From contig JAQCEM010000010.1 of the NCBI GenBank assembly GCA_027729635.1, forward strand, positions 422 to 64,421: DNA of 64,000 bases, given 5' to 3'. Below are positions 35,801 to 64,000 of this stretch, in pieces; the stretch's first letter is position 1; every line of letters starts with the position of its first letter. This stretch comes from Actinomycetota bacterium (lineage in GTDB: Bacteria; Actinomycetota; Acidimicrobiia; Acidimicrobiales; Ilumatobacteraceae). The notes beneath the pieces are model-generated. The model ran no database searches. It was not told the DNA's origin and saw only the letters and a program-made list of their open reading frames with translations. The translations under genes and the position numbers were made by a program.

Positions 35801-36180
35801 TGTGGGCCACGGGTGTGTCGCCCAATGGACACCCAACATCATTTTTGCGTGAACAACTTGATGCATATGGCGTGGTGCCTGCTGATCAATTATTGACGAC
35901 TGAACAAACCAAAGTATGGGTTGCGGGAACAGTGACTCATCGCCAACGACCGGCAACTGCTCAGGGAACAACGTTCATCAGTCTTGAAGATGAAACAGGT
36001 TTGATGAATGTGGTGGTGTCGGTGGGCTGCTGGAAACGGTTTCGGCCAGTGGCTCGCGGTGCGGGAGCGTTGTTAGTGCGAGGTCGTCTGCAGCGTTATG
36101 AAGGAGTGGTGAATATCGTCGCTGAACACATTGCGCCACTTTCGGTTGCAGCTCAAGTCACTGCCCGAAACTTCAGATAA
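32836..36180 (+). CDS. dnaE2: error-prone DNA polymerase III alpha-like subunit DnaE2
   Basis: 1114 aa. PHP domain YAELHCHSNFSFLDGAS and VTDHNGLYG. Polymerase core GRGSAANS, DIDLDIE, FDLLGLGML. It has a LexA box and sits in mutasome context. Confidence 0.92.
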   Translation: MGSTWGMQGPTTWSELEARLSGRKPQSSSQSSSAHSSPSVVRLARDPLVTPEPDRTPTGGTPRPVVPYAELHCHSNFSFLDGASHPEELAEEAHRLGLTALAVTDHNGLYGVVRFAEAARVVGLPTVFGSEITVQASAGPQHLVVLADGTAGYARLARALSLAQLAGSKGDPRCTMPDLADVGAGHWWVMTGCRQGAVPSALVDHGPSAALRELQKLITAFGRDRVLIELWDHGDPLDTARNDAMAELAARADVQCIATNNVHYATPSARRLATAIAAVNQRCSLDEIDHCLPAAATAHLRSGAEQSRRFARYPGVVDLAAEIGRAAAFDLSLVAPKLPPYPCPDGLTEMQFLRRLTEEGARRRYGERPQSGEDLSIRARAWKTIDHELEVVELLGFAGYFLVVWDIVQFCNDSDIFCQGRGSAANSAVCYSLGITKADAVSLGLLFERFLSPDRDGPPDIDLDIESGRREEVIQYVFNRYGRHHTAQVANVITYRARSAVRDMARALGYAPGQQDAWSKQMDMWRNVAANSPDKTPEGRVDQAIPPLVLELAAEIEDAPRHLGIHSGGMVICDRPVIEVCPVEWGRMKDRSVLQWDKDDCAAAGLVKFDLLGLGMLSALHGAVDLVKRHKGVAIDLAALPQDDDVYAMLCRADTVGVFQIESRAQMATLPRLKPRRFYDLVVEVALIRPGPIQGGSVHPYIRRRNGQEPITYLHPLLENSLGKTLGIPLFQEQLMQMAIDVAGFSASEADQLRQAMGSKRSQKRMQLLRQRLYEGMAERGIVGDIADEIFDKMAAFANYGFPESHSVSFAYLVYSSSWLKLYEPAAFYAGLLNAQPMGFWSPHSLAQDARRHGVVVRTPDLLASGAQATLEECAESHGGFAVRLGLSSIRGIGAGLAEQIEDERELHGDYVDAEDLVRRVDELTLSQLEAMATGGIFTECFGLERREALWAVGAAAQSRRDRLPGLATGTQAPMLPGMEPLEVAVADLWATGVSPNGHPTSFLREQLDAYGVVPADQLLTTEQTKVWVAGTVTHRQRPATAQGTTFISLEDETGLMNVVVSVGCWKRFRPVARGAGALLVRGRLQRYEGVVNIVAEHIAPLSVAAQVTARNFR

Positions 36181-50030: not shown

Positions 50031-50663
50031 CTAGTGGCCAGTTAACGCGCCGTACAGCAAAGTAGCCAAGGTGTTGCGAATGGCATCACGATTGGCACCG
50101 CGCTTGGCCATTTCGGGTTGAAACGCCAACAATCGTTCACACATCGCAACAACAGCTGCAGCCGTTGTGAACGGGTCAAGTGATTCGGGAAGCCGCTTGG
50201 AAGCGACTCCTTCTGAGACCATTGCTTGTAGCGCATCCATCACGAGCAAGTTGGCTTCGGTGCGTACGGCTCGGAAGTGACGGTTACCTTCTTCGGCCTT
50301 TAAGTTGCGGGCACGAAGCACTGCATGGTGGTTGTCCCAGAAGGCCATGTAGGCATCAACAAATTGACCAGCCCGCTCAAGTCCATCTGGTGCATTCCAA
50401 CCTGGTTGCAGCAATGCAACTAATGGTTTTTCGTCGTCGGTTGCTTCTTTGGCAAGTTCAAGAATGGCCTCATCAACATCATTGAAGTACTGATAAAAAG
50501 TTGCCGGTGAAGAACCGATGTCGCGCGATATATCGACAACGCGCAGATCAAGAATTCCTTGTTCATCCAGCAACTTTGCTGTTGCATCAAGGAGTTTTCG
50601 GCGAGTTACTAAAGCACGAGATCCGATGACTCGACCGTCGGCGGCAAATACATCATCACTCAT
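50031..50663 (-). CDS. TetR/AcrR family transcriptional regulator
   Basis: N-terminal HTH: TRRKLLDATAKLLDEQGILDLRVVDISRDIGSSPATFYQYFNDVDEAIL. Helical ligand domain. Last gene of a 5-6 gene minus-strand operon. Confidence 0.85.
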   Translation of the reverse strand: MSDDVFAADGRVIGSRALVTRRKLLDATAKLLDEQGILDLRVVDISRDIGSSPATFYQYFNDVDEAILELAKEATDDEKPLVALLQPGWNAPDGLERAGQFVDAYMAFWDNHHAVLRARNLKAEEGNRHFRAVRTEANLLVMDALQAMVSEGVASKRLPESLDPFTTAAAVVAMCERLLAFQPEMAKRGANRDAIRNTLATLLYGALTGH

Positions 50664-51565
50664 CAGTTAGCACCGTACACGGGTGCGGGCTTCGGTGCCT
50701 CGCGAATGAGGTCGGCAACAACTGCACCAATCTCGGCAGGTTCGTAACGCGCACCCTTATTGAAGGGTGCGCCATGTTGCCAGCCATCGGCAACAGAAAG
50801 TTCGCCGCCGACTGTTTCAAACATGCGTCCTGAGATTTCACATGCTGATGAACCTAGCCACACAACGACTGGGCTCACATTGGCAGGGTCCATGGCATCG
50901 AAGCCAGACTCGGGCTTCTTCATCATGTCAGCAAACGCTTCTTCAGTCATTCGGCTACGTGCTGATGGCGCAATGCCGTTGATCTTCACGCCGTAACGAT
51001 CAAGTTCGGCGGCAGCCACGATGGTGAACGAAGCGATACCGGCTTTGGCTGCTGAATAGTTGGCTTGTGACACGCTGCCGAAGAGTCCCGCGCCAGACGA
51101 TGTGGTGACAACACGGGCATCAATCGGTGTGCCGGCCTTGCTCATGGCTCGCCAATAGTCAACTGCCTGGCGCACTGGACAGAACATGCCGCGTAAGTGA
51201 ACCTTCATCACGGCGTCCCATTCATCGACTGACATGTTCACAATCATGCGGTCGCGCACAATGCCAGCGTTACACACCAAGGTGTCGAGATGACCGAATG
51301 TGTCAATGGCTTGCTTGATCATGCGACCAGCACCATCCCAATCACTCACATCGTCGTCATTGACGATTGCATCGCCGCCGAGACTTTTGATTTCGGCAAC
51401 AACCTCGGCAGCAGGGGTGAGATCGTGTCCTTCGCCAGTGAGCGAAGCACCAACGTCGTTCACGACAACCTTGGCTCCTTCAGCAGCGAAAGCTAAAGCA
51501 TGAGCACGACCAAGACCGCGTCCAGCTCCAGTGATGATGACGACCCGTCCGTCGCAGATTCCCAT
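50663..51565 (-). CDS. SDR-family oxidoreductase (~300-aa type, multifunctional-enzyme-2 N-terminal-like)
   Basis: GRVVIITGAGRGLGRAHALAFAAEGAKVVVNDVG, NAGI and S...YSAAKAG. The stop overlaps the TetR start by 1 nt. Confidence 0.85.
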   Translation of the reverse strand: MGICDGRVVIITGAGRGLGRAHALAFAAEGAKVVVNDVGASLTGEGHDLTPAAEVVAEIKSLGGDAIVNDDDVSDWDGAGRMIKQAIDTFGHLDTLVCNAGIVRDRMIVNMSVDEWDAVMKVHLRGMFCPVRQAVDYWRAMSKAGTPIDARVVTTSSGAGLFGSVSQANYSAAKAGIASFTIVAAAELDRYGVKINGIAPSARSRMTEEAFADMMKKPESGFDAMDPANVSPVVVWLGSSACEISGRMFETVGGELSVADGWQHGAPFNKGARYEPAEIGAVVADLIREAPKPAPVYGAN

Positions 51566-51577
51566 GATGTACTTCTT

Positions 51578-52414
51578 TCAGCAGGTAATGCCGCCGTCGA
51601 TGACGACAATTGAGCCCGTCATGTAGCGACCTTCGTTAGATGCGATAAATGCAAAGAGATTGGCCATCTCATCGGGTTCGGCCTGATCCATAGGAGTCAT
51701 GATCTTTCCCATGAGCTTGTAGTCGGCATCGGCGGGAAGGCTCATGAATGAGTTAACGATGTTGGTATTCGTTCCACCTGGTGCAATGGCATTAACGCGT
51801 ACGCCTTTGCCGCGGTATTCATAGGCAAGCGCACGAGTGAGGTTGACGACTCCACCTTTGCTTGCACAATACGCAGCGCTCCAAGGCGCACCCATCAAGC
51901 CTGAGGTTGATGCAGTGTTCACAATGACTCCATCGTGACCAGTCTTGGCATATGTGTCAAGAAGATGGGGAAGCGCGTAGCGCGCCACATAGAAAGTGCC
52001 ATTGAGGTTGACCGACACGATGCGATCAAACCACTCGGGAGTTTCTTCGTGGCTGTTTGCGAAGTGTCCGATGCCAGCAATGTTGCACACGATGTCGAGA
52101 CCACCGAGTGCCTTGGCGGCTTTGTTGAGAACCTTCTCAACATCGACTGCCTTGGTGACATCAAGGTCGTAGGCGGTAGCGGTGCCGCCGGCCTTCTTGA
52201 TTTCAGCAGCTGTCTCTTTGGCCCCGCGAAGATCGGCCAGTGCAAGTTGGGCACCTTCGGCTGCGAAACGAAGAGCAGTCGCGCGACCAATGCCAGATCC
52301 TGCACCAGTAATGAAAATACGCTGACCCTTTAGGCGCTTATATGTCGGCGCAGGCTTGAGGGCGGCCTTCTTGGTCGGTGCCTTTTTTGCAGTTGCTTTC
52401 TTCGCGGTACTCAT
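51578..52414 (-). CDS. SDR-family oxidoreductase with a Lys/Ala/Pro-rich N-terminal tail
   Basis: ITGAGSGIGRA, NIAGI, S...YCASKGG, PG..NT. The N-terminus is MSTAKKATAKKAPTKKAALKPAPTYKR. Its ATG overlaps the upstream stop (ATGA), and there is no alternative in-frame start before the Rossmann motif. Confidence 0.85.
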   Translation of the reverse strand: MSTAKKATAKKAPTKKAALKPAPTYKRLKGQRIFITGAGSGIGRATALRFAAEGAQLALADLRGAKETAAEIKKAGGTATAYDLDVTKAVDVEKVLNKAAKALGGLDIVCNIAGIGHFANSHEETPEWFDRIVSVNLNGTFYVARYALPHLLDTYAKTGHDGVIVNTASTSGLMGAPWSAAYCASKGGVVNLTRALAYEYRGKGVRVNAIAPGGTNTNIVNSFMSLPADADYKLMGKIMTPMDQAEPDEMANLFAFIASNEGRYMTGSIVVIDGGITC

Positions 52415-53973
52415 GATGCTCCTCCGTAGGTAGCTCGTAGATCTTTCTTGAGAACTTTTCCGCTGGGGTTGCGCGGAAGTGCGGCAACAATTTCGAGTTG
52501 TTCAGGAATCTTGTGTACCGAAAGTTGTTGAGTCTTGAGAAAACTCACCATCTCGTCAAATGAAATTGTTGAATCTGCTTTGCACACGACAACCGCGCAC
52601 GCGCGTTCGCCGCTGTTCTTATCGGGCAAACCGATTACTGCAGCATCGGCAATTGCCGGATGAGCGAACAGCAGGTCTTCAATTTCTTTGGCTGAAATGT
52701 TCTCGCCCTTGCGGATGATGATGTCTTTTAAGCGACCAGTGATTGAGACGAATCCTTTAGCATCAATGACTCCGAGGTCGCCGGTCCTGAACCAGCCATC
52801 TTCGTCAAATGCATCGGCGTCAAGAGATGAATCTAAATAACCCTGACACACCTGGCGACCTTTAACGCGTAGTTCGCCTTCTTCGCCTGGAGCACAAACG
52901 CGACCATCAATGACGGTGCGCAGGGTGACACCAGGACACGGCCGACCATCGGTAAGAGCTTTCTTTTCATCAGGATCGTCAACGTGAATCATGGTGTTGA
53001 TGGGTGCTTCAGTGAGACCCCACCCGCCAATCAGCGGAGCACCAAATGCTTCCATCATTTCTGCGTTCAAGGTTTTTGGCTTAGGGGCACCGCCACCGTT
53101 AAAGATGCGGACATTGGGCAGTAGTCGTTCACCAACTGGTAGTTGACGTTGAGCGTTGAGGTAGGTCAACCAGAAAACAGTTCCGGCGCCGGCGCACGTT
53201 ACGCCATTTTCTCCCAACCACTTCGGTGTGTTTGCTGGATCAAAAGTTTCAACCATCAACAATTCAACGCCAGTTTGCATGGCATTGAAGAGCCACACCA
53301 GTCCACCGACGTGAGTGATAGGGAAGACCACCGCTGCTTTGTCGCTGGGTCCAACCTCCATGCTCCATTGCATTCCGTCATTTGCCGCCGACATGCTGTT
53401 GTCACTGTGTTTGGCGCCTTTGGGATCGGCGGTTGTTCCTGACGAATAAAAGAGCCAGCGAATTGCATCGAGGTCGGCTCGATATGTGGGTAAACCAATT
53501 GCGTCAGGGTCAGCCTCGGGTAGGTCGGGGTCAACCACGATGATCTCTACGTCTTGATCAAGTGTTGCGACCACTTCTTGAGCCATCGTCAAGTAATCAA
53601 AGCCACGGAAGACGTGCGGGACAATCAAAACCTTGCAGGTTGACTGCGTCGTGATGAACGTAACTTCACGATTGCGATAGATCGGCAAGATTGGGTTTTG
53701 AATGGCGCCCATACGGGACAATGCGCCAGTAAGAACGAGCGATTCAAAACGTGAAGGAAGCACCCATGAAACATTGGTGTTTTCGATGATTCCTTTTTGC
53801 GAAAGACCAGCGGCGACACGTTCGCACCAATTCTTGTATTCGCCGTACGTCATCGTGCGACCACTTTCGTCGAGTGCCATACGCTTGTCGGGTGTTACTA
53901 AGGCACGCTCTGAGATCAGTTGCCAGAGAGTCTTGCCCTCTGTCTCAATTGTGCCGGCAATATGCGAAGTCAT
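52411..53973 (-). CDS. AMP-dependent acyl-CoA synthetase/ligase
   Basis: AMP-binding motifs: LFYSSGTTADPKGA, GGWGLTE, FRTGDLG, ITGRLKDIIIRKGENISAKEIE, LPRNPSGKVLK. Confidence 0.85.
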   Translation of the reverse strand: MTSHIAGTIETEGKTLWQLISERALVTPDKRMALDESGRTMTYGEYKNWCERVAAGLSQKGIIENTNVSWVLPSRFESLVLTGALSRMGAIQNPILPIYRNREVTFITTQSTCKVLIVPHVFRGFDYLTMAQEVVATLDQDVEIIVVDPDLPEADPDAIGLPTYRADLDAIRWLFYSSGTTADPKGAKHSDNSMSAANDGMQWSMEVGPSDKAAVVFPITHVGGLVWLFNAMQTGVELLMVETFDPANTPKWLGENGVTCAGAGTVFWLTYLNAQRQLPVGERLLPNVRIFNGGGAPKPKTLNAEMMEAFGAPLIGGWGLTEAPINTMIHVDDPDEKKALTDGRPCPGVTLRTVIDGRVCAPGEEGELRVKGRQVCQGYLDSSLDADAFDEDGWFRTGDLGVIDAKGFVSITGRLKDIIIRKGENISAKEIEDLLFAHPAIADAAVIGLPDKNSGERACAVVVCKADSTISFDEMVSFLKTQQLSVHKIPEQLEIVAALPRNPSGKVLKKDLRATYGGAS

Positions 53974-53991: not shown

Positions 53992-55095
53992 CTAGAAAGT
54001 GATGACAGCGCGAGCAACGTTGCCGCTCTCGAGCCCATGAACGGCGTCTTCCCAATTGGCAAGGGGAAAAGTTGCGCTCACGAGTTCGTCAAGCAACACT
54101 TCGCCGCGGCGGTACAGATCGATGATGTACGGAATGTCGCGTTGTGGACTAATGGTTCCGTAACGACAGCCGATGATGCCACGATCAACTTGTGTCAGAC
54201 GCGTGTACAGACCAGAGAATTCTGCGGTCTGACTAGTAACGCCGATGACGACAACGGTGCCTTCCCAATCGAGGCATTCAAGAGCATTGCGAGTTACTGC
54301 CGGATGAGCGACACAATCGAAAGCCCAGTTCACTCCGCCGGCATTGAACGGTCCGCGGGGCATTGACTCGTTAAAGGGCATGATGGCACCGACTTCGGCG
54401 ATGACGTCGGCGGTACGGCCATCTAAGAAGTGGGTCGCGCCAAACTGACGTGCGAGTGCTTCTTTTTCTGGAACGGTGTCAACCGCGATGATGGTGGTGG
54501 CGCCTTGTACCTTGAGTGCTTGGATGACGTTGAGTCCGACTCCACCAACACCAAACACAAGTGCCGACTGTCCACGCTTGACATTGGCACGATTGAAAAC
54601 CGCACCCATTCCGGTGACGACACCGCAACCAACAAGTGCAGCCGACGTGAGCGGAACATCTTTCGGAATCTTGACGCACTGCACATCACGTACGAGGGTT
54701 TTTTCAGCAAACGCACTGGTGGCAGCGAAGTTGTAAATGGGATCACCATTCAATGTGAATGGTTGACTCCAGTTACCAAGAGTTGCTCGACACGCCGTTG
54801 GTCGACCGTCCATGCAGTATTGACAAAATCCGCAGGCAGCAAGCGTAGCGATGATGACGTGGTCGCCGGGTTGAACATGGGTGACGGCATTGCCAACTTC
54901 GGCAACGACTCCGGCAGCCTCGTGGCCACACACGCCAGGAGAAGGAACGGGGTACATGCCGCTCATATATGAGATGTCGCTGTGGCACAGGCCGGCGGCT
55001 GCTACCTGAACCACGACTTCTCGTGGGCCAGGAGCGCGAAGTGTGAGTCCGTCGACTAGTTCGGTTGTGGTCCCGTTGTAAACGATGCCCTTCAT
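53992..55095 (-). CDS. Zn-dependent alcohol dehydrogenase (class III / MDR family)
   Basis: GLCHSDISY, GHEAAGVV, the structural Zn cluster C..C..C....C (CGFCQYCMDGRPTAC), and NAD motif VFGVGGVGL. The start is taken at ATG 55095 (MKGIVYNG). Confidence 0.85.
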   Translation of the reverse strand: MKGIVYNGTTTELVDGLTLRAPGPREVVVQVAAAGLCHSDISYMSGMYPVPSPGVCGHEAAGVVAEVGNAVTHVQPGDHVIIATLAACGFCQYCMDGRPTACRATLGNWSQPFTLNGDPIYNFAATSAFAEKTLVRDVQCVKIPKDVPLTSAALVGCGVVTGMGAVFNRANVKRGQSALVFGVGGVGLNVIQALKVQGATTIIAVDTVPEKEALARQFGATHFLDGRTADVIAEVGAIMPFNESMPRGPFNAGGVNWAFDCVAHPAVTRNALECLDWEGTVVVIGVTSQTAEFSGLYTRLTQVDRGIIGCRYGTISPQRDIPYIIDLYRRGEVLLDELVSATFPLANWEDAVHGLESGNVARAVITF

Positions 55096-55145
55096 GGATT
55101 TCCCCCTCAAACAGTGAAAGAACTCTAGTGCAGCGGCCTCGAAAA

Positions 55146-55162
55146 TCTGACGGCGAGTCAGA
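55146..55162. promoter_or_regulatory. operator-like palindrome TCTGAC-N5-GTCAGA (site 1 of 3) in the divergent ADH / TauD promoter region
   Basis: AAAATCTGACGGCGAGTCAGAAAGG lies 51 nt upstream of the ADH start and 12 nt upstream of the tracked TauD ATG. The same half-sites occur at 58813..58835 and 63751..63767. Confidence 0.55.
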
Positions 55163-55173
55163 AAGGTCTTTCA

Positions 55174-56025
55174 ATGGTGCCCGAACCGTTGTACGGTGCG
55201 CCTATGACCAATTTGATTTCTGGCTCAAAGATTGCAATTTCACCACTTCCGGGCGCTCTTGGGGCGGTCGTTGAGGGTCTTGAAGTCACCAAGTTGAGCG
55301 ACGAAGCCCTTGCCGAAATTGCGGTCGATCTGAAGGCGGCTTGGGCCGAACACCTAGTGCTGTTTTTCCCTGGAGCCAATTTGGCCCCCGCCGATCAAAT
55401 GCGCTTGGCGCGACTCTTCGGAAACCACATTGCGGCGACCACCGAAGCCGGTGGCGATTACCGCAACGCACCGTCTTTGCGCGATGAGGGATTCCCCGAA
55501 ATCTTGGTGTTGGACACAGAGCTGAAACTCGACCCTCGTCAGACCGCGGTGTGGCACACCGACGTGACTTTCACTGGTAATCCGCCAATCGGGTCGATGT
55601 TTGTGATGGAGATTGCCGCGACCTCTGGCGGCGACACCATGTGGTCGAATCAAATCAAGGCCTTCAATTCTTTGAGCACTCCGGTGCAAGATTTCATCAG
55701 CGGACTCAATGCCATGCATGGCCGTCCACCAAAGACCGGGACCGCAGTGCATCCGATGGTGCGGGAACATCACGTGACCGGCGAGAAAGTTCTGTTTGTT
55801 AATCGCGGTTGGACGAACTCGATTGTCGGATTAACGCCAATGGAGAGCATGCACCTCCTTGAGGTCATCAACCAGACGGCAGAACGACCCGAGTTGCAGA
55901 TTCGGTGGAAGTGGACCTCGGGCGATGCCGCACTGTGGGATAACCGTTACACAATGCATTACGCCTTAAATGATTACCACGGGCAACGCCGTCGTGCCCG
56001 TCGCGCCACGATCTACAACGTGTAA
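55174..56025 (+). CDS. TauD/TfdA-family Fe(II)/2-oxoglutarate-dependent dioxygenase (taurine/sulfonate or alkyl-sulfate type)
   Basis: WHTDVTF (the HxD iron ligands), ...GGDTMWSN..., HP.V..H..TG...LFVN, RRATI. The start could be 55174 or 55204. Confidence 0.85.
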   Translation: MVPEPLYGAPMTNLISGSKIAISPLPGALGAVVEGLEVTKLSDEALAEIAVDLKAAWAEHLVLFFPGANLAPADQMRLARLFGNHIAATTEAGGDYRNAPSLRDEGFPEILVLDTELKLDPRQTAVWHTDVTFTGNPPIGSMFVMEIAATSGGDTMWSNQIKAFNSLSTPVQDFISGLNAMHGRPPKTGTAVHPMVREHHVTGEKVLFVNRGWTNSIVGLTPMESMHLLEVINQTAERPELQIRWKWTSGDAALWDNRYTMHYALNDYHGQRRRARRATIYNV

Positions 56026-57582
56026 TTATCTAACAGAATTTCGCAGTTCAAATTTGAGAACTTTGCCGCTGGCGTTGGTGGGAAGTGCATCAACAAATGT
56101 GATGTATCGCGGAACCTTGTAGTTCGCCATTCGATTGCGCGCCCAATTCAACAGTTCGTCAATGTCAACGCGTTGATCATGGCGCTTCACCACGAATGCA
56201 TGTCCAACTTCGCCCATACGTTCGTTGGGGCGACCAACAATTGCGACTTGTGCAATTGCTGGATGATTCATGAATTCATTTTCAATTTCTGCCGGGTATG
56301 CATTAAAGCCTCCGACGATGAACATGTCTTTGAGTCGATCGGTGATCGTGATGTATCCATGTTCGTTCATGACACCAATGTCGCCAGTGTGTAGCCACCC
56401 ATCAGCATCGATTGTTTGTGCCGTGGCCTCTGGATCGGCAAAGTATCCAGGCATCACGTTGTAGCCACGGCAAACGATTTCGCCAGACTGTCCATGTGCT
56501 ACCTCAAGATTGTTTTCATCGACGACTCGAACTTCGACATCGGTGATTGCGCGACCACTGGTTGTTGAGATTGTGACGGGATCATCTTCGGCGCGACACA
56601 TTGTGACGGTGCCCGTTGATTCGGTGAGGCCGTACGCAGTCAAGATCACTTCAAAGTTCAATTCATCGCGCATTCGTTTGATCATCTCAACGGGAACAGC
56701 GGCAGCACCAGTGACAGCGAGACGTAACGAAGACAGATCAAACTTGGCCCGGTCGGGATGATTGAGAATTGTGAGATACAAAGTGGGTGGACCTGGAAGT
56801 GCCGAAATCTTTTCGTCGCTGATTTTTTGCAGAACCGATGGAACGTCAAAGACGGGTACGGGCACCATTGTGGCACCACGCAATAGGCATGCGAGGAAAC
56901 CGGCCTTGTATCCAAAGGTGTGAAAGAACGGGTTGACGATTAAGTAGCGGTCAGTCTCGTTCAGGCCAACAATGTTGGACCATTCAAGAAAGACGCGAAT
57001 TGTTTGATCGTGGCGCGACATCACGCCCTTTGGTTTTCCGGTTGTTCCGGATGTGAAAATGATGTCGCAGAGATCTTCTGGAAGTACTTGTGATTCGCGC
57101 TGTTTAACCAATGCGTCTGATGTCGTTGAGCCGCTGGTAATGAATTGCGACCAAGTCTGATCGTCGTTGGCGGCATTGCCTGAAATCACGATGATGTTCG
57201 AAAGGCATTCGGTGTTTTCGCCTGCCTGACGTAGCTCATTGACGTAGTTGGTGCCGAGAAAATCGTTGCAACAAAATAGAAACTTGGCGCCACTTCGTTC
57301 AATGACGTACGCCGCCTCGTGGCCCTTGAAGCGGGTGTTAATTGGTACTAAAACTCCACCGACCAGTTGAGCGCCAAGCGCAGCAAAAATCCATTCGGCA
57401 CTGTTGGGCGCCCAAATCGCAACGCGGTCACCATGTCCAAGACCTTGGGCAATGAAGGCGCGTGCTGCCGATTCGATTTCGTGGACGACTTCAATGAAAG
57501 ACCAACGTCGTGAGCCGTCAACTAAAGCTTCACGTTCGCCGAACTTCGCGGTGGCCCGCACTACTTGCGGGATGGTCAACAC
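56026..57582 (-). CDS. AMP-dependent fatty-acyl-CoA ligase (FadD-like)
   Basis: IIFTSGTTGKPKGV, YGLTE, LHTGDIG, ITDRLKDMFIVGGFNAYPAEIE, LPTNASGKVLK. Its stop abuts the TauD stop with no gap. Confidence 0.85.
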   Translation of the reverse strand: MLTIPQVVRATAKFGEREALVDGSRRWSFIEVVHEIESAARAFIAQGLGHGDRVAIWAPNSAEWIFAALGAQLVGGVLVPINTRFKGHEAAYVIERSGAKFLFCCNDFLGTNYVNELRQAGENTECLSNIIVISGNAANDDQTWSQFITSGSTTSDALVKQRESQVLPEDLCDIIFTSGTTGKPKGVMSRHDQTIRVFLEWSNIVGLNETDRYLIVNPFFHTFGYKAGFLACLLRGATMVPVPVFDVPSVLQKISDEKISALPGPPTLYLTILNHPDRAKFDLSSLRLAVTGAAAVPVEMIKRMRDELNFEVILTAYGLTESTGTVTMCRAEDDPVTISTTSGRAITDVEVRVVDENNLEVAHGQSGEIVCRGYNVMPGYFADPEATAQTIDADGWLHTGDIGVMNEHGYITITDRLKDMFIVGGFNAYPAEIENEFMNHPAIAQVAIVGRPNERMGEVGHAFVVKRHDQRVDIDELLNWARNRMANYKVPRYITFVDALPTNASGKVLKFELRNSVR

Positions 57583-57584
57583 AA

Positions 57585-58793
57585 TTACTTGAGGTGCGTA
57601 ATGCTGAGCATCTTGATGGCGTTGCCGCGCATCAACTTGTACACGACCTCATCGCTGAGTTCGCGGGTCTGCTCTGCAGCAATCTTGGCAGTGTGTGGCC
57701 ACGTCGAATCTGAGTGCGGGTAATCGCATTCAAAGGTGACATTGTCGACGCCGATTTCTTCGAGTGAACGCAAGCCGTGCGGGTCATCGAAGTAACAGCC
57801 GTAGATGTGCTCTTTGAACAACTGGCTCGGTGGAACCAAAACTTTGTCGGCGATGCCGCCCCAACCACGATTCTCTTCCCATACGTTGTTGGCGCGCTCG
57901 AGGATGTACGGAATCCAACCGATCTGGCCTTCGCTGTACGCAATTTTGAGATTGGGGAATTCGGTGAAGACACCACTCATGAGCCAATCGACCATGCTGA
58001 AGCAGCAGTTCGCGAACGTGAGTGTTGAGCCAACAGCTGCGGGCGCATCAGGTGAAGTGCTCGGCATCTTTGATCCTGAACCAATATGCATGTTGATTGT
58101 TGTTGCTGTTTCGTTACAAGCAGCGAAGAAGGGCTTCCAGTATCCATCTTTGTCATGGATACTGGGCAATCCGAGGTTGGTGGGGATTTCGCTGAAGCAC
58201 ACTGCGTGAACACCTCGTGCTGCGTTGCGACGTACTTCGGCAGCAGCAGCTACTGGGTCCCACAACGGAATAATGCACAACGGCAACATACGTCCGCCTG
58301 ATTCGCCACACCATTCTTCAACCATCCAGTCGTTGTACGCACGTACACACAACATGGCGAGTTCTTTGTCTTTGGCTTCGTAGAAAGTCTGTCCGCAGAA
58401 TCGCGGGAAGGTGGGGAAGCATAATGAAGCTTCAATGCCTGCAGTGTCCATGTCTTCGAGACGTTCTTTGAGTTTGTAACTACCTTGACGCATTTCGTCA
58501 TAGGTGATGCCCGCTAAGATGACTTCATCACGTGAGAAACCGACAGCGGTGTCGAGTCGAGTGAGTGGACGACGGAGGTCTTCGTAGAACCACCAATCGG
58601 CCAACGGGCCCTCTTCACCTTTTTCGCCGGGGATGGCGGTGAAGGTTCCACCGACGAACGTCATTTGCTTTACGGGCAGGCGGTGGACTCGTGGTCCGAC
58701 GTCGGCGTACTTCGAGGGAAGGCGGTCCGACCAGACAGTCGCTGGTTCAGTGATGTGGTCGTCAACCGAGATGATTTTTGGCAATTCGCGCAT
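57585..58793 (-). CDS. amidohydrolase-2 (ACMSD/LigW-like) family metal-dependent hydrolase or decarboxylase
   Basis: IISVDDHITEP (H-x-H-like metal site), ...NMHIGSG..., ECDYPHSDSTWP (the terminal D/H ligands). The start is taken at ATG 58793. It ends 2 nt before the FadD-like gene. Confidence 0.8.
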   Translation of the reverse strand: MRELPKIISVDDHITEPATVWSDRLPSKYADVGPRVHRLPVKQMTFVGGTFTAIPGEKGEEGPLADWWFYEDLRRPLTRLDTAVGFSRDEVILAGITYDEMRQGSYKLKERLEDMDTAGIEASLCFPTFPRFCGQTFYEAKDKELAMLCVRAYNDWMVEEWCGESGGRMLPLCIIPLWDPVAAAAEVRRNAARGVHAVCFSEIPTNLGLPSIHDKDGYWKPFFAACNETATTINMHIGSGSKMPSTSPDAPAAVGSTLTFANCCFSMVDWLMSGVFTEFPNLKIAYSEGQIGWIPYILERANNVWEENRGWGGIADKVLVPPSQLFKEHIYGCYFDDPHGLRSLEEIGVDNVTFECDYPHSDSTWPHTAKIAAEQTRELSDEVVYKLMRGNAIKMLSITHLK

Positions 58794-58812
58794 GAGTCTG
58801 AGGGTAGCACCC

Positions 58813-58835
58813 GAATCTGACGCCGCGTCAGATTC
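58813..58835. promoter_or_regulatory. operator-like perfect palindrome GAATCTGACGC-C-GCGTCAGATTC (site 2 of 3) in the divergent amidohydrolase / LLM promoter region
   Basis: 11-1-11 perfect inverted repeat, 20 nt upstream of the amidohydrolase ATG (58793) and 47-83 nt upstream of the LLM start candidates. Confidence 0.6.
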
Positions 58836-58917
58836 TGCGTGCAATGGGCGTTGTCGGCCTGAGGCGACCTACGCTCGGAGCATGGTTCCCCCTAAGCAGA
58901 CTCAAGCAAAGCCCCGA

Positions 58918-59799
58918 ATGACGGTCGGCGTGGCGTTGCCGCAAATGGCGACCGGTCTGGACCGAAATCGACTGGTGGAATGGTGCCGCGAAGTGGATTC
59001 GGGCCCATTTTCAAGTATTTCGGCAGGTGAACGCATCACTTTTCACAATTTGGACGGTTTTACCCTGTGTTCAGCGGCCGCGGTCCTGACCGAGCGAGTG
59101 CGAATTTTGGTCAACGTGGCGGTGCTGCCCTGGCATGCGCCGGCGCTCGTGGCCAAAGAACTGGCGTCAATGGATGTGGTGTCGGGCGGACGAGTTGAAG
59201 TGGCGGTCGGAGTGGGCGGACGTCAACAGGACTATGCCGCATTGGGTTCGCCATTTGCTGGCCGCCACAAACGACTCGATGAGGCAGTTTTTGAACTGAA
59301 GCGACTGTGGGCGGGCGGCGTCGCTGCTGATGGTGAGAAGGTGGGGCCTGCCCCGTTGCAGGCAGGTGGTCCGCCGGTCTTGGCGTCGGCAATGGGTCCG
59401 AAGTCGTTAGCTCGTGCGGCTCAGTGGGCTGTGGGCGTTAGCGGTTTTACGTTGTTGGGTGATTCTCGTGAAGCCGGACGACTATTTCGGGCGACAGAAA
59501 GTGCTTGGAATAACGCAGGTCGTACCGATAAGCCTCGATTAGTGACGGGGTCGTTTGTTGCACTTGGCGCGAATGCTGCTGAAACTTTGCGCGATTTTGC
59601 GGCAACGTACTTGCATGTGTTTTCACCTGATTTAGCGAAGTCATTATCAGAGGCGATGACGCTTAACGAGCAATCACGACTGGTTGACTTACTTGATCAA
59701 GTTGAAGCAGAAGGCGCAGACGAGTTCATTGTTGTTCCCGCAACTAGCGACCCTGCGATGATAGAAGAACTTGCTGAGGTTGTTGCTTCGCGTCAGTGA
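58918..59799 (+). CDS. LLM-class flavin/F420-dependent oxidoreductase
   Basis: MTVGVALPQMATG...FSSISAGERITF...LASMDVVSGGRVEVAVGVGG shows a luciferase-like TIM-barrel pattern. The start is ATG 58918 or 58882. The tracked 58633 start overlaps the divergent gene and the operator. Confidence 0.75.
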   Translation: MTVGVALPQMATGLDRNRLVEWCREVDSGPFSSISAGERITFHNLDGFTLCSAAAVLTERVRILVNVAVLPWHAPALVAKELASMDVVSGGRVEVAVGVGGRQQDYAALGSPFAGRHKRLDEAVFELKRLWAGGVAADGEKVGPAPLQAGGPPVLASAMGPKSLARAAQWAVGVSGFTLLGDSREAGRLFRATESAWNNAGRTDKPRLVTGSFVALGANAAETLRDFAATYLHVFSPDLAKSLSEAMTLNEQSRLVDLLDQVEAEGADEFIVVPATSDPAMIEELAEVVASRQ

Positions 59800-60584
59800 T
59801 TGTTGTCGGGATTACGTTGCAGGTCCCAAACCATTCGGATTGCGACAATCAAAACAAGTGAAGCAAACAAAACATTGGAAAGATCTTGCGACATCTGATC
59901 GGCGATGATTCCTCCGCCAATTGCCGAGATGATTCCAGAGACACCGACGATGCTTGCGACACGCAGGTCAACGTTGTCGGCCTTCCAATTACGCCACGTT
60001 CCCATCATAGATGTTGGAATAATGACTGCAACTGACGTGCCCTTGGCAACGACGCTGAGTTCGCTAAAGAAAACAGACATCGCCGGAACCATGACGACGC
60101 CGCCGCCGATACCAAGTAAGCCGGCCAACGTTCCGGTGACGAAACCAATAAAGACAAGGGCAATCGCCGCAAAGACTGTCAAGGCTTCACGACCATCTGC
60201 GTTCAACGGAATGAACAAACGAATGGCGGTGATGAGAAGCATGACTGCAAAGAGATTGCCCAAAACTTTTTTGGGAAGAATGTGAATCCACTTGGTGCCA
60301 ACTACTGCACCAGCTAAGGCTCCAATGGCGAGCCACAACGCCATGAACCAGTCGACGTTGTCTTGGGTCCAGTAGGTAATGAGGCCTGCGACAGAGATTG
60401 GTAAAACTGCCCCAAGAGAAGTTCCGTTAGCAAGGCGCTGATCAAACTTGAGGAGTAAAACAAAGGCCGGCACGATCAAAATGCCTCCACCGACGCCGAA
60501 CAGTCCTGAGAGCAAGCCGGCACCAAGACCGACGGCCAGAGCGATGGCGAGTCGCGATCTAGTTTCTGTCGCTTGAACTGTCAC
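59793..60584 (-). CDS. TauE/SafE (TSUP) family sulfite/organosulfonate exporter
   Basis: 263 aa with 7-8 TM segments and two internal repeats, each carrying GxGGG (LFGVGGGILIVP and LLGIGGGVVMVP). Confidence 0.8.
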   Translation of the reverse strand: MTVQATETRSRLAIALAVGLGAGLLSGLFGVGGGILIVPAFVLLLKFDQRLANGTSLGAVLPISVAGLITYWTQDNVDWFMALWLAIGALAGAVVGTKWIHILPKKVLGNLFAVMLLITAIRLFIPLNADGREALTVFAAIALVFIGFVTGTLAGLLGIGGGVVMVPAMSVFFSELSVVAKGTSVAVIIPTSMMGTWRNWKADNVDLRVASIVGVSGIISAIGGGIIADQMSQDLSNVLFASLVLIVAIRMVWDLQRNPDNNH

Positions 60585-60689
60585 ATAACAGTTCTAGTCG
60601 CTGGGGTGAACTGGCGGTGGCATATGCCGTCGCCGCGATTGGTGAAATATAAAGTTGGGGACTGTCCAAAAAAGAAAGTTGTGATTCTG

Positions 60690-61586
60690 ATGCGTAGATC
60701 TTTTGCACTTGGTGTCATTGTCGCCCTATCAGGTTTAGTGGCCTGCTCGAGTGGCGATAGTTCGAACAACGCCTCTGATCCTTCAGTTGTTGAAACGGAA
60801 GTACCGGTTACTGACGCTCCGACGACTGATGCTCCGGTGACCGAAGCTCCGACGACGACTGAAGTCACAGAACCGTTGCAAATTTTGGTGACGAATGATG
60901 ACGGTATTGGTGCCGATGGTATTGATGTGATCGTGCAGGCATTGCTGCAACTCGACAATGTTGAACTCACCGTCGTTGCGCCGCTTGAAAATCAAAGTGG
61001 TAGTGGCAGCAAAACGACCGAAGGTGCTTTGACGGTTACCGATGCGACAACCAAGAGCGGTTACGCCGCCAAAGCAGTTGCTGGTTTCCCTGCCGACAGC
61101 ATGGTGTGGGCCATTGATCAAGGCGGTATTGACTTTGTACCCGATCTTGTGGTCTCTGGAATTAACAATGGACAGAACTATTCGCTGGAAATCGTCTCGT
61201 TGTCGGGCACAGTTGGGGCGGCGCGCGCTGCAGCCCAGCGGAATATTCCATCAATTGCAGTGAGTCAGGGATTGGCTGATTCTCCGGATTATCCGACGGC
61301 AGCCGATGCAGCCGTGAAATGGATTGAGGAACATCGTGATGAACTGATCGCTCGTGCTGATGGAACCCCAGTGACCGAATTCGCCAGTATCAACGCTCCG
61401 ACGTGTGCTGAGGGCCTGAAAATTCGAGGAGTAATCGAAGTGCCGATTGAGTCAATGGGTACTCGTGATTACAACGCCAACAATTGTGCATCAACAGTTG
61501 AGCCCACTGGAGATGTGAGTGGCTTCCAAAATGGGTATGTCACGATTACCAAACTGCCCATCACCGGCGGACCATTCGCAGACTGA
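60690..61586 (+). CDS. surE: 5'/3'-nucleotidase SurE with a lipoprotein signal peptide and Thr/Pro/Ala linker
   Basis: MRRSFALGVIVALSGLVACSSGD (lipobox LVAC). Linker VTDAPTTDAPVTEAPTTTEVTEP. SurE core: ILVTNDDGIGADGI, SGINNGQN, SGTVGAA. Confidence 0.85.
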   Translation: MRRSFALGVIVALSGLVACSSGDSSNNASDPSVVETEVPVTDAPTTDAPVTEAPTTTEVTEPLQILVTNDDGIGADGIDVIVQALLQLDNVELTVVAPLENQSGSGSKTTEGALTVTDATTKSGYAAKAVAGFPADSMVWAIDQGGIDFVPDLVVSGINNGQNYSLEIVSLSGTVGAARAAAQRNIPSIAVSQGLADSPDYPTAADAAVKWIEEHRDELIARADGTPVTEFASINAPTCAEGLKIRGVIEVPIESMGTRDYNANNCASTVEPTGDVSGFQNGYVTITKLPITGGPFAD

Positions 61587-61600
61587 GATAACTGACCGAA

Positions 61601-62563
61601 CTATTTGCTGAGTACTGAAGCGCCAACGCGACGGCGATGGAAGGTTGCATCGCCGTAAGCGCGCATGAGCGCCCACGACTTCTTCATCCACAGTTGAAGA
61701 TCGGCTTCCCAGGTGTAACCAATGCCGCCGTGCACCTGCATGGTTGAACGACTCGCTCGGTAAGCGGCTTCACTGGCGAGAGCCTTGGCCATGCTGATGT
61801 CACGAGCTGCCGTCGCAGCACCAGTACTTGCGCTCCATGCGGCTCGGTAAGTAGGCGCTTTGGCGAATTCAACTTTGAGTAACGCATCAGACATGAGGTG
61901 TTTGACGGCTTGGAAAGACCCGATGGGCTTGCCGAATTGTTCGCGTTGACGCGCATATTCGGCAGCGACTTCGATCATGCGCTCTGATGCACCGATTAAA
62001 TAAGCGGCACTTGCGAGTGCCATGACATCTGATGCGGGTAGTCCGAAAACTTCAGCAGACGCACTTGTTTCAGTTCCGCCAGAAATGGTGAACAGTTGAC
62101 GTCCGCCGTCAATGCCATGAGCATCGCTGGTCGAAAAGCCAGTAATGACTGCTTCGTTGCGTAAAACAAGATTGGCAACTTGGGCGTGAGCAACATATGG
62201 AATGTTGTCAACCCAAAGTGTTGCAATCTGCGAACCGTCAACTAATGAGGGCCCCCACGAAGTATTCGCAAGTGCAGGTGCTGCCACCGCCATGTGTTCG
62301 AGCACCGGTCCGGGAACGCCTGCTCGACCTAATTCTTGGAATAACAAAATGGCATCAATCAACGTGCCACCCATTCCGCCGGCCGATTCGGAAACGAGCA
62401 TCGAGAGCACGCCCATCTCGGAGAGGCGGGTCCACAATTGTGGAATGTGTCCGGTGTGATTTTCCCAAGCCTCACGAACATGAGCGGGAGTGCACTCATT
62501 CGACAATAAATCGCGAAGACCCTCGGCGAAGAGGCGTTGATCATCGGTAAATGAAAATTTCAT
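61601..62563 (-). CDS. acyl-CoA dehydrogenase family protein (short, partner/beta-like subunit)
   Basis: 320 aa from ATG 62563 (MKFSFTDDQRLFAEGLRDL). ACAD fold (FGKPIGSFQAVKH, VHGGIGYTWE) with no recognisable E-G-T catalytic block. It starts 4 nt after the upstream ACAD gene ends. Confidence 0.85.
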   Translation of the reverse strand: MKFSFTDDQRLFAEGLRDLLSNECTPAHVREAWENHTGHIPQLWTRLSEMGVLSMLVSESAGGMGGTLIDAILLFQELGRAGVPGPVLEHMAVAAPALANTSWGPSLVDGSQIATLWVDNIPYVAHAQVANLVLRNEAVITGFSTSDAHGIDGGRQLFTISGGTETSASAEVFGLPASDVMALASAAYLIGASERMIEVAAEYARQREQFGKPIGSFQAVKHLMSDALLKVEFAKAPTYRAAWSASTGAATAARDISMAKALASEAAYRASRSTMQVHGGIGYTWEADLQLWMKKSWALMRAYGDATFHRRRVGASVLSK

Positions 62564-62567
62564 GACG

Positions 62568-63716
62568 TCACATTCCCTTCGGCAATTGCAGCACGCGGTC
62601 AGCGATGATGTTGCGTTGAATTTCGTTGGTTCCGGCGTAGATCGGACCACTCAATGAAAACAAGAAGCCGTCAACCCAGCGTTCAAAGGGTCCTTCCATA
62701 CGTTCGGATTCGGGTCCAAGGATCTGCAGCGCGATTTCATGGATGCGCACATCCATCTCACTCCAGAAGATTTTGTTGAGGCTTGCCTCGGCCCCAATTG
62801 CCCGACCTTCAAGCATTCCGGTCACGGTTTGATACGTGTGTAATCGGTAACCCTCGGCCTGCATCCAGACATCAGTGACAGCATCTGAAAGTGCAGTATC
62901 TGTTGGGTCGGCGTAAGTGCGCCACAAATGAATTAAGCGGTTGACAGCCTCAGAGAATCGTGCGGGACTACGCAAACTCACGCCACGTTCAAAGCCAGCA
63001 GTCGCCATGGCGACACCCCAACCTTTGTTTTCTTCGCCCAAAGTATTCGCTAACGGAACGCGTACATCGTCAAAAAAGATTTCGGCAAATCCAGTATCGC
63101 CATCAAGTTGTGCGATGGGTCGAACAGTGATACCAGGCAGATCAAGGGGACACAGAATAAAGGTCAAACCCCGATGGCGATCGGCAGTCGGGTCAGTGCG
63201 GAAGATTCCGAAACACCAGTCAGCCCATACGGCACGGCTCGCCCAAATTTTCTGGCCATTTAAAATCCATTCATTACCATCGCGAGTTGCCTTACTACGA
63301 ATACCCGCCAGGTCGCTGCCGGCATTGGGCTCGCTCCAGGCTTGACCCCACACAATTTCTGATGAGGCCATAGAGGGCAAGAACTTGGCTTTTTGTTCTT
63401 CGGTGCCGACTTCCATAATGGTGGGGCCGAGTAAGAAAATGCCGTTTTGATTCACTCGACCGGGCGCACCCGCTCGGTAATACTCCTCTTCAAAAATCAA
63501 CCACTTGATGTAATCGGCGTTGCGGCCGCCGTACTCAACAGGCCACGACACGGCCGACCAGCGACCCTCGTACAACTTTTTTTCCCACACACGATGGAGG
63601 GCGAAGCCTTCTTCGGTGTCAAAGCTAGGAAGTGGAGAAGTGGGCACGTTGGCCTCAAGCCAGGCCCGCGCCTCAGCGCGGAATGTGGACTCTTCACTGG
63701 TTTCGTTGAGATCCAT
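62568..63716 (-). CDS. acyl-CoA dehydrogenase (alpha-like subunit of a tandem pair)
   Basis: 382 aa. WSEPNAGSDLAG, WILNGQKIWASRA, and a C-terminal IYAGTNEIQRNIIADRVLQLP in which the usual YEG reads YAG. Confidence 0.9.
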   Translation of the reverse strand: MDLNETSEESTFRAEARAWLEANVPTSPLPSFDTEEGFALHRVWEKKLYEGRWSAVSWPVEYGGRNADYIKWLIFEEEYYRAGAPGRVNQNGIFLLGPTIMEVGTEEQKAKFLPSMASSEIVWGQAWSEPNAGSDLAGIRSKATRDGNEWILNGQKIWASRAVWADWCFGIFRTDPTADRHRGLTFILCPLDLPGITVRPIAQLDGDTGFAEIFFDDVRVPLANTLGEENKGWGVAMATAGFERGVSLRSPARFSEAVNRLIHLWRTYADPTDTALSDAVTDVWMQAEGYRLHTYQTVTGMLEGRAIGAEASLNKIFWSEMDVRIHEIALQILGPESERMEGPFERWVDGFLFSLSGPIYAGTNEIQRNIIADRVLQLPKGM

Positions 63717-63750
63717 ACGGTGACGAACCTTAGTCGCAGTCGATCAAAAA

Positions 63751-63767
63751 TCTGACGCCGTGTCAGA
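63751..63767. promoter_or_regulatory. operator-like palindrome TCTGAC-N5-GTCAGA (site 3 of 3) in the divergent ACAD / acyltransferase promoter region
   Basis: AAAATCTGACGCCGTGTCAGAAAT lies 35 nt upstream of the ACAD ATG (63716) and 52 nt upstream of the GTG at 63819. Confidence 0.55.
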
Positions 63768-63818
63768 AATCGTTGGTGAGACATATTCGCTGAACATTCG
63801 CCCAACTATCCTGACCCC

Positions 63819-64000
63819 GTGGGGGATCGCAATCACGGGGGAATTGAGTATGTCGCTGGGCTAGATGGCCTTCGCGCACTCGCCGTCATCACGGTGATGG
63901 CGTTTCACCTTGGATGGTCATTCGTGCCTGGCGGAGCTTTTGGAGTTTCGCTGTTTTTCACCTTGTCGGGTTATTTGATTACCCAGGTGATGTTGGCCGA
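63819..64000 (+). CDS. acyltransferase family 3 (OafA-like) membrane protein, N-terminal fragment running off the right edge
   Basis: Not in the track. My translation from GTG 63819: VGDRNHGGIEYVAGLDGLRALAVITVMAFHLGWSFVPGGAFGVSLFFTLSGYLITQVML. The (L)DGLRA.AV..V...H and (V)D.FF.lSG(F/Y)LIT blocks are the acyltransferase-3 signature. Confidence 0.7.
   Translation, partial: MGDRNHGGIEYVAGLDGLRALAVITVMAFHLGWSFVPGGAFGVSLFFTLSGYLITQVMLA

Follow-up and report, generated by a model that had tools for sequence, protein, structure and literature searches.

The DNA analysed here, called the window throughout, is a stretch of 64,000 nucleotides from an actinomycetotal bacterium of the family Ilumatobacteraceae (contig JAQCEM010000010.1, positions 422 to 64,421), and it carries a catabolic gene cluster in which three divergent promoter regions contain the 17-base palindrome TCTGAC-N5-GTCAGA. 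Protein identities were assigned with Pfam and NCBIfam and comprised a zinc-dependent alcohol dehydrogenase (ADH), a TauD-family dioxygenase, an Amidohydro_2 protein, a FadD3-family ligase, a luciferase-like (F420-type) oxidoreductase (LLM), a tandem pair of acyl-CoA dehydrogenases (ACADs), an Acyl_transf_3 protein, and a TetR-family regulator. Three operons are located on the minus strand. Operon 1 runs from 55095 down to 50031 with no gap or overlap between genes exceeding 18 nt, and consists of the ADH gene (53992-55095), an acyl-CoA ligase gene (52411-53973), two genes for short-chain dehydrogenases/reductases (SDRs; 51578-52414 and 50663-51565) and, as its last gene, that of the 210-residue TetR-family regulator (50031..50663), which contains TetR_N and TetR_C_38 domains and is proposed below as the cognate repressor. 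Operon 2 (56026..58793) contains the Amidohydro_2 gene (57585-58793) and the gene for the FadD3-family acyl-CoA ligase (56026-57582), the product of which scored 759 bits against NF005801 (cut-off 657). Operon 3 (61601..63716, from Pfam matches and gene calls) contains the tandem ACAD genes at 62568-63716 and approximately 61601-62563, the second of which encodes a protein without the middle domain. The TauD gene (55174..56025), the LLM gene (58882..59799), and an acyltransferase-3 gene cut by the end of the window (63819..64000) are on the plus strand.

Exactly three matches to the pattern TCTGACNNNNNGTCAGA (TCTGAC-N5-GTCAGA) were found in the 64 kb, all of them exact and all placed between divergent gene starts. 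Site 1 (TCTGACGGCGAGTCAGA, 55146..55162) lies between the ADH operon (minus) and the TauD gene (plus), 50 nt from the ADH ATG (55095); on the TauD side, the distance is 11 nt to the ATG at 55174, or 41 nt to an alternative ATG at 55204. Site 2 (TCTGACGCCGCGTCAGA, 58816..58832) separates the amidohydrolase-FadD3-like operon (minus) from the LLM gene (plus); the amidohydrolase ATG (58793) is 22 nt away and the LLM ATG (58882) 49 nt, and the site forms the centre of a perfect 23-bp palindrome at 58813-58835 (11-1-11), GAATCTGACGC-C-GCGTCAGATTC. Site 3 (TCTGACGCCGTGTCAGA, 63751..63767) is flanked by the minus-strand tandem ACAD operon, whose ATG (63716) is 34 nt away, and by the plus-strand acyltransferase-3 gene, whose GTG (63819) is 51 nt away. 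The sequences flanking the three sites are mutually unrelated. Dinucleotide-preserving shuffles of the window gave 0.01 exact matches on average, and none of 100 contained three. When two mismatches were allowed, one further match was obtained (47222-47238), bringing the total to four against 2.5 expected, which is the chance level; this additional match (ACTGATTATTTGTCAGA) has an A+T-rich centre and lies 232 nt inside an open reading frame (ORF) of 683 residues (46991-49042). On these points the first-pass annotation of the window was accurate: its gene names, its count of three copies with none elsewhere in the 64 kb, its quoted flanks, the 11-1-11 palindrome, and the placement of every copy in a divergent promoter region were all reproduced.

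Conservation was assessed in a comparative sample of 80 loci around amidohydrolase orthologues (1.57 Mb in total), of which approximately 60 were from Streptomyces and 14 from other Acidimicrobiales; individual loci are cited below by L numbers. In the six closest loci (82-98% identical) the palindrome occurs at the same three promoters. Site 1 is kept in L001-L003, L006, and L083, and site 3 in L001 (one mismatch), L002, L006, and L083 (one mismatch), where it precedes TAAGGT or TAGGGT by 18 nt. Upstream of the amidohydrolase start, a palindrome with two or fewer mismatches was present within 130 nt in 80/80 loci (6 exact, 69 with one mismatch, and 5 with two), and its gap to the start was mostly 19-24 nt; the relaxed core shared by all 80 genomes at this position is nCTGACG-N3-CGTCAGn. 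Across the 1.57 Mb, the core CTGAC-N5-GTCAG occurred 239 times versus 1.35 expected from composition, and 217 of these occurrences adjoin an ORF start. The symmetrised consensus is wwTCTGACGnnnCGTCAGAww, in which the middle three bases are free and the two half-sites are conserved to the same degree. Where the gene order is rearranged, in L004, L005, and L085, the palindrome moves with its promoters and heads units encoding SDR-TetR, ACAD-ACAD-SDR-TetR, a thiolase, and a second amidohydrolase beside a major facilitator superfamily (MFS) gene. Judged by this pattern of conservation, the palindrome is a genuine, conserved, operator-like regulatory element on promoters.

The closest relatives of both the TetR protein and the amidohydrolase were found in freshwater metagenome-assembled genomes (MAGs) labelled Ilumatobacteraceae, Acidimicrobiia, or Actinomycetota. 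Two of the loci, L003 (98%) and L005 (84% versus the window amidohydrolase), were deposited as MAGs of 'Bifidobacterium breve' and 'Ferrithrix thermotolerans', respectively, and look mislabelled. The Amidohydro_2 protein (57585-58793) is 66-69% identical to Streptomyces proteins, a very high value across classes, which suggests that the cluster either is under strong constraint or has been transferred horizontally.

Two contigs that are 99.97-99.99% identical to the window (L102 and L103) extend 9.7 kb past its right end and carry a fourth exact copy of the palindrome (TCTGACACATCGTCAGA) at 7450-7466, approximately 2.5 kb beyond the window end; the same copy is present in L001 (2483-2499). It follows the acyltransferase stop codon and precedes a DUF35(ChsH2-type)-thiolase-thiolase operon, and the next 7 kb contain no further copy. 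The cluster therefore has at least four operator-bearing promoters over approximately 22 kb.

The promoter layout was derived from motif-anchored alignments of orthologous loci, in which the palindrome and a TAnnnT hexamer at a fixed distance from it stand out as conserved islands in otherwise diverged spacers. At the amidohydrolase promoter the order is palindrome, 9 nt, the predicted -10 hexamer TACCCT (58801..58806, minus), 7 nt, and the ATG, and this layout is kept from the source genome to Streptomyces (with TACCGT, TACACT, and similar hexamers). Such an arrangement is the signature of a leaderless mRNA and would place the operator at approximately -39 to -23. At the ADH promoter the palindrome is followed after 18 nt by the predicted -10 hexamer TAGAGT (55122..55127, minus), which is invariant in six orthologous loci, and then by 29 nt of leader that include the ribosome-binding site GAGGGGG. 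Site 1 can be attributed to this promoter because the same layout is retained in L083, in which TauD is missing and site 1 directly follows the amidohydrolase stop codon. At the ACAD promoter the palindrome likewise precedes the predicted -10 hexamer TAAGGT (63727..63732, minus) by 18 nt, and the hexamer ends 10 nt ahead of the ATG. With the operator 18 nt from the -10 hexamer, the proximal half-site falls at the -35 position. In L004, L005, and L085 the palindrome directly abuts TACGAT or TACGCT, and across promoters the operator-to-hexamer spacing is 0, 7-9, 16, or 18-20 nt. An occupied operator at any of these positions would block RNA polymerase, and the geometry thus fits repression. A scan with the sigma-70 consensus returned nothing at the three sites, which is unsurprising for actinobacterial promoters.

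The situation at the plus-strand genes is different. A TAnnnT hexamer is followed after 6 nt by the start codon in each case, namely TACGGT (55192-55197) before ATG 55204 of the TauD gene, TACGCT (58870-58875) before ATG 58882 of the LLM gene, and TATCCT (63807-63812) before GTG 63819 of the acyltransferase gene. The centre of the palindrome lies at approximately -50 (TauD), -58 (LLM), and -60 (acyltransferase), and control of the plus-strand genes by the palindrome is uncertain because this centre, some 50-60 nt upstream of the start, is outside the core promoter. Four cluster genes (hexamers at 55192, 58801, 58870, and 63807) have TAnnnT 6-7 nt before the start and lack a ribosome-binding site; these genes (TauD, amidohydrolase, LLM, and acyltransferase) are probably transcribed as leaderless mRNAs, and the TauD start may accordingly be ATG 55204 rather than 55174.

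The best candidate for a protein that binds the palindrome is, as the comparative data strongly suggest, the TetR-family regulator encoded at 50031-50663. It matched TetR_N (PF00440) with 26.8 bits (cut-off 24) over residues 24-62, which include model helices 42-48 and 53-59, and TetR_C_38 (PF19352) with 69.3 bits. Its AlphaFold2 model (pLDDT 92.6) has nine helices and the TetR fold, and almost all of the top 50 PDB matches listed for the model are described as TetR-family regulators. The best Foldseek matches were EthR (TM 0.75-0.83), FasR and Bacillus FadR (0.61-0.74), and KstR2 (0.54-0.58), which are lipid- or acyl-CoA-sensing repressors; the closest solved structure by sequence was PfmR (PDB 3vpr, E 1.8e-5). 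A subfamily hidden Markov model (HMM) run over the ORFs of the window detected no other TetR-type gene, and none of ten small ORFs checked was a regulator.

The genomic context of TetR relatives that are 34-93% identical was then compared. The palindrome or a close variant of it heads the transcription unit of the TetR gene in 12/13 informative loci (the window, L001, L004, L005, L006, L083, L085, L092, L093, L094, L100, and L101), and the single informative locus without it, L096, has a degenerate half-site only. L086 and L097 end before the head of the operon is reached and give no information on this point, and L095 is outside the 13. Several of the motif-headed TetR genes are far from the amidohydrolase cluster (contexts L092, L094, L100, and L101). 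Between the palindrome and the annotated start of TetR there are 33 nt in L092, 23 nt in L094, and 19 nt in L101, where the palindrome, 7 nt, TACCCT, 6 nt, and the ATG of TetR itself follow one another. In an alignment of 33 members, the recognition helix residues A54, T55, F56, Y57, Y59, and F60 (SPATFYQYF) are invariant, as are residues D9, G10, R11, G14, and R16 of an N-terminal arm (D-G-R-x-x-G-x-R) ahead of helix 1, which may contact DNA. The match between invariant DNA-reading parts of the subfamily and an invariant half-site is good comparative evidence, not proof, that the TetR subfamily reads the palindrome. The TetR of L095, which is 45% identical, has the recognition helix FYHYF in place of FYQYF, and the half-sites in that locus are the variants TTGACG/CGTCAA (positions 1469, 5216, and 9944; TTTGACGGTTCGTCAAA), so that the change from CTGACG to TTGACG stands beside the changed helix; this is possibly a single case of protein-operator co-variation.

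The motif, its statistics and conservation, its fixed spacing to conserved -10 hexamers, and its co-occurrence with the TetR subfamily are shown here, and the palindrome, which has a size suitable for a TetR operator, overlaps the predicted promoters; binding by the TetR protein, repression, and the nature of the effector are inferred. It is quite probable that a single homodimeric repressor of the TetR family uses all three palindromes as its operators, and this repressor is most probably the product of 50031-50663, which would be autoregulated. Each operator would cover the -35 region or spacer of a leftward promoter (those of the ADH-ligase-SDR-SDR-TetR, amidohydrolase-FadD3-like ligase, and tandem ACAD operons), the fourth operator outside the window would head the DUF35-thiolase operon, and a repressor bound there would exclude RNA polymerase. 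TetR would repress its own operon, since its gene ends the operon headed by site 1. Release would be brought about by a pathway metabolite; our guess is a CoA thioester that the regulon's two ligases produce, or else a precursor of hydrophobic character. The evidence for release by a small molecule is indirect, in that the structural neighbours of the TetR model (Foldseek) bind lipids or acyl-CoA.

The earlier interpretation is partly supported by these results; most of it holds, with three corrections. Three operons of the window, or four with the outside site, carry the operator on the core promoter, and the claim of at least five controlled transcription units was overstated, as core promoter overlap is limited to the three minus-strand operons. 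The description of a compact local regulon had the wrong scope: a fourth site lies outside the window and the core is present at 80/80 amidohydrolase orthologues, including those of Streptomyces, so that the regulon is neither local nor lineage-specific. The proposal of TetR as the regulator gained from the motif-headed relatives, and its assignment stays conditional, given that no Streptomyces family member was found within 10 kb; the proposal of autoregulation agrees with the position of the gene in operon 1.

Several points weigh against the TetR model. Almost every unit of the cluster is headed by the motif, and the presence of TetR in such a unit is therefore weaker evidence than it appears; this weakness is only partly offset by the independent contexts L092, L094, L100, and L101. 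The promoter elements of the cluster are predictions, and the identity of the effector is a guess. The remaining points concern Streptomyces and soil Acidimicrobiales. No member of the TetR subfamily was found by tblastn or the subfamily HMM within 10 kb in the approximately 60 Streptomyces and 14 other Acidimicrobiales loci, protein searches found no chromosomal Streptomyces orthologue (queries P0153 and P0159 returned only Acidimicrobiia), and a different conserved protein could be the binder. Paralogues do occur on six Streptomyces plasmids, five linear and one circular, beside ligA or dprA (L081 7971-8603, L089 5971-6597, L090 6001-6642, L091 6001-6639, L098 8037-8651, and L099 7980-8606); the helix TSPATFYQYF is identical in 4/4 translated copies (L081, L089-L091), and no palindrome was found within 6-8 kb in 6/6. 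A plasmid copy could in principle act on chromosomal sites.

These observations bear most directly on the explanation that the palindrome does serve as an operator, for another conserved regulator whose gene lies at a different place in the genome, with TetR as a passenger that has a different target. In its favour, Streptomyces and many soil Acidimicrobiales have the motif at the promoters of amidohydrolase, LLM, FadD, and Ltp genes, and no TetR_C_38 gene lies closer than 10 kb there. Further Streptomyces copies precede an Ltp-thiolase/DUF35 pair and a divergent FadD3-like ligase, two LLM genes, and an SDR gene, and are often paired, 40-60 nt apart (for example L013 13368-13384, and L033 3774, 9964, 16751, 16792, 18608, and 18670). 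Against it, Acidimicrobiia TetR relatives only 34-40% identical carry the motif on their own promoters (L092, L094, L100, and L101), the DNA-reading residues of the subfamily are invariant, the surroundings of the window sites yielded no second regulator gene, and a regulator more than 10 kb distant is not unusual in Streptomyces. For soil Acidimicrobiales, the lack of a regulator near the amidohydrolase is explained, as their genomes encode family members at other places, and the promoters of these members carry the motif. We consider a different binder unlikely overall. Among proteins that might have filled this role in Streptomyces, two generic TetRs in L031 and L027 were rejected as unrelated. 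In 41 Streptomyces loci (e.g. L013 6316-9291), an AfsR-like BTAD/NB-ARC/TPR regulator of approximately 1000 residues diverges from the amidohydrolase gene, and the palindrome consequently lies in the shared intergenic region; this regulator was also rejected, as it is without a counterpart in Acidimicrobiia and its family binds direct repeats. Paralogous amidohydrolase loci on replicons of Embleya, Mycobacterium branderi, and Rhodococcus (L082, L087, and L088) have no motif and are thus uninformative on the regulator.

That the palindrome might instead be an activator site or a promoter element, such as an operator in the spacer of the kind used by MerR or a box resembling the -35 element of an alternative sigma factor, is very unlikely. 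The half-site cTGACg does resemble TTGACA, it lies approximately 19 nt from the -10 hexamer at the amidohydrolase promoter (a MerR-like spacing), and a site centre at about -50 to -60 of the plus-strand genes would suit an upstream activator. The variable spacing between operator and -10 is, however, unlike the strict MerR geometry, equal conservation of both half-sites is unneeded for a -35 box, and no MerR or sigma-factor gene is nearby; TetR-family proteins are almost always repressors.

A role as an RNA or DNA hairpin (intrinsic terminator, attenuator, or stem-loop in a 5' untranslated region) is scarcely credible. A stem of 6-7 bp with a loop of 3-5 nt could form, and the terminator scan listed site 3 on the minus strand, followed by TTTTT, but that scan gave 12 matches versus 10.7 in shuffles, and every copy lies between two gene starts with no gene end there. 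The palindrome is upstream of the conserved -10 hexamers of the minus-strand operons and is therefore not transcribed with them. From Acidimicrobiia to Streptomyces the bases of the stem do not vary, the centre is free, and compensatory changes are absent, a pattern that indicates a protein reading the DNA. As an intrinsic terminator in particular the element was rejected, as only site 3 was flagged and its 6-bp stem has three G-C pairs. Finally, the notion that the copies are functionless products of chance or remnants of a duplicated intergenic segment has practically no probability, as nothing but the small copy number in the window favours it, against the shuffling result, the unrelated flanks, and conservation across classes of Actinomycetota.

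The gene set of the TetR-controlled cluster as proposed here (ADH, SDRs, F420-type LLMs, Amidohydro_2, two CoA ligases, paired ACADs, Ltp/DUF35, and thiolases) allows the speculation, from family names, that an alicyclic or branched substrate is oxidised to a CoA ester and then degraded by beta-oxidation-like steps. The Amidohydro_2 family has lactonases and decarboxylases among its members. TauD and TauE genes alone are no indication of sulfonate metabolism.

A wider reading, which we put forward tentatively and regard as rather doubtful, is that the palindrome marks an ancient, undescribed regulon common to Acidimicrobiia and Streptomyces, in which the TetR_C_38 subfamily and its operator have long been co-conserved and a plasmid copy could reprogramme a chromosomal regulon in trans. 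If so, this regulon would control an uncharacterised oxidative pathway built on Amidohydro_2, F420-type LLMs, a FadD3-like ligase, Ltp/DUF35, and paired ACADs, and the plasmid paralogue with the identical helix next to ligA would be relevant to the chromosomal regulon in Streptomyces. The freshwater Ilumatobacteraceae are abundant and mostly uncultured, and to our knowledge almost nothing is known of their gene regulation. An operator with an assigned repressor would offer a way to delimit a catabolic regulon in MAGs, a handle on the pathway substrate through effector screening, and a compact, portable repressor-operator pair. Since the same core is found on orthologous Streptomyces promoters, the regulon could be studied in a tractable organism, and this conservation poses the concrete question of which protein binds there. 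The proposed mechanism is a standard TetR switch and would therefore be useful rather than surprising to the specialist; the conservation of the operator sequence is unusually wide for such a switch.

In the literature on the motif, on PF19352/TetR_C_38, and in TetR surveys, no matching operator was found, within a coverage that was incomplete and leaves a prior description possible. The nearest parallels in organisation are KstR and KstR2 of M. tuberculosis, autoregulated TetR repressors whose short palindrome recurs at many promoters within a catabolic cluster of the lipid or steroid type. The window cluster resembles theirs in its CoA ligases, paired ACADs, SDRs, and thiolase-like Ltp/DUF35 proteins, and KstR2 controls fadD3, which has a counterpart here in the FadD3-family ligase of operon 2; KstR2 is released by a CoA thioester. 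The gene sets differ in that the window has F420-type LLMs, Amidohydro_2, and TauD, and no ipdAB or echA20. The KstR operator TnnAACnnGTTnnA had one match in the window, at 35991, which is the chance level (1.13 expected) and is away from these promoters, and the KstR2 operator AnCAAGnnCTTGnT had none, which bears out the earlier remark that the motif differs from both. KstR2 (4w1u) was absent among the TetR sequence matches to solved structures at E <= 0.001, and its fold match was weak.

EthR, FasR, and Bacillus FadR are like the window protein in being of the TetR type, and have long hydrophobic ligand tunnels (FadR entry 3whc holds stearoyl-CoA), but they share only 13-20% sequence identity with it and their operators are unrelated. 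EthR controls a Baeyer-Villiger monooxygenase gene, and several of its dimers bind a long operator cooperatively; FasR is an activator. PfmR of Thermus thermophilus, also of the TetR type, represses the catabolism of fatty acids and phenylacetate and has a pseudopalindromic operator; its sequence similarity to the window TetR is marginal, and its operator (TACCGACCG-type) is unlike the palindrome.

Mce3R has two TetR repeats and recognises a non-palindromic 25-bp site (PMC11667970). The same double-TetR architecture was observed in many of the best remote relatives of the window TetR (P0121, P0123, P0124, P0126, and others), which have 440-480 residues, two tandem TetR repeats, and similar recognition helices; one of them is from Phenylobacterium, and their lineage is distinct from Mce3R. 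An Mce3R-type assignment was rejected for the window TetR, which has a single 210-residue repeat and a palindromic operator, and Mce3R was not among its sequence matches to solved structures. BkaR/Fad35R (Rv2506, MSMEG_4718) is an autoregulated TetR repressor with a palindrome on its own promoter and on those of nearby acyl-CoA metabolism genes, and its motif, with the core GTTA-N-T-N4-A-N-TAAC, was found by comparative motif analysis (PMC3920632). The approach and the autoregulated TetR are thus the same as proposed here, and the difference lies in a core unrelated to TCTGACG-N3-CGTCAGA and in another subfamily. By analogy with these systems, the cluster would work in the manner of KstR, KstR2, and BkaR, while standing outside their regulons.

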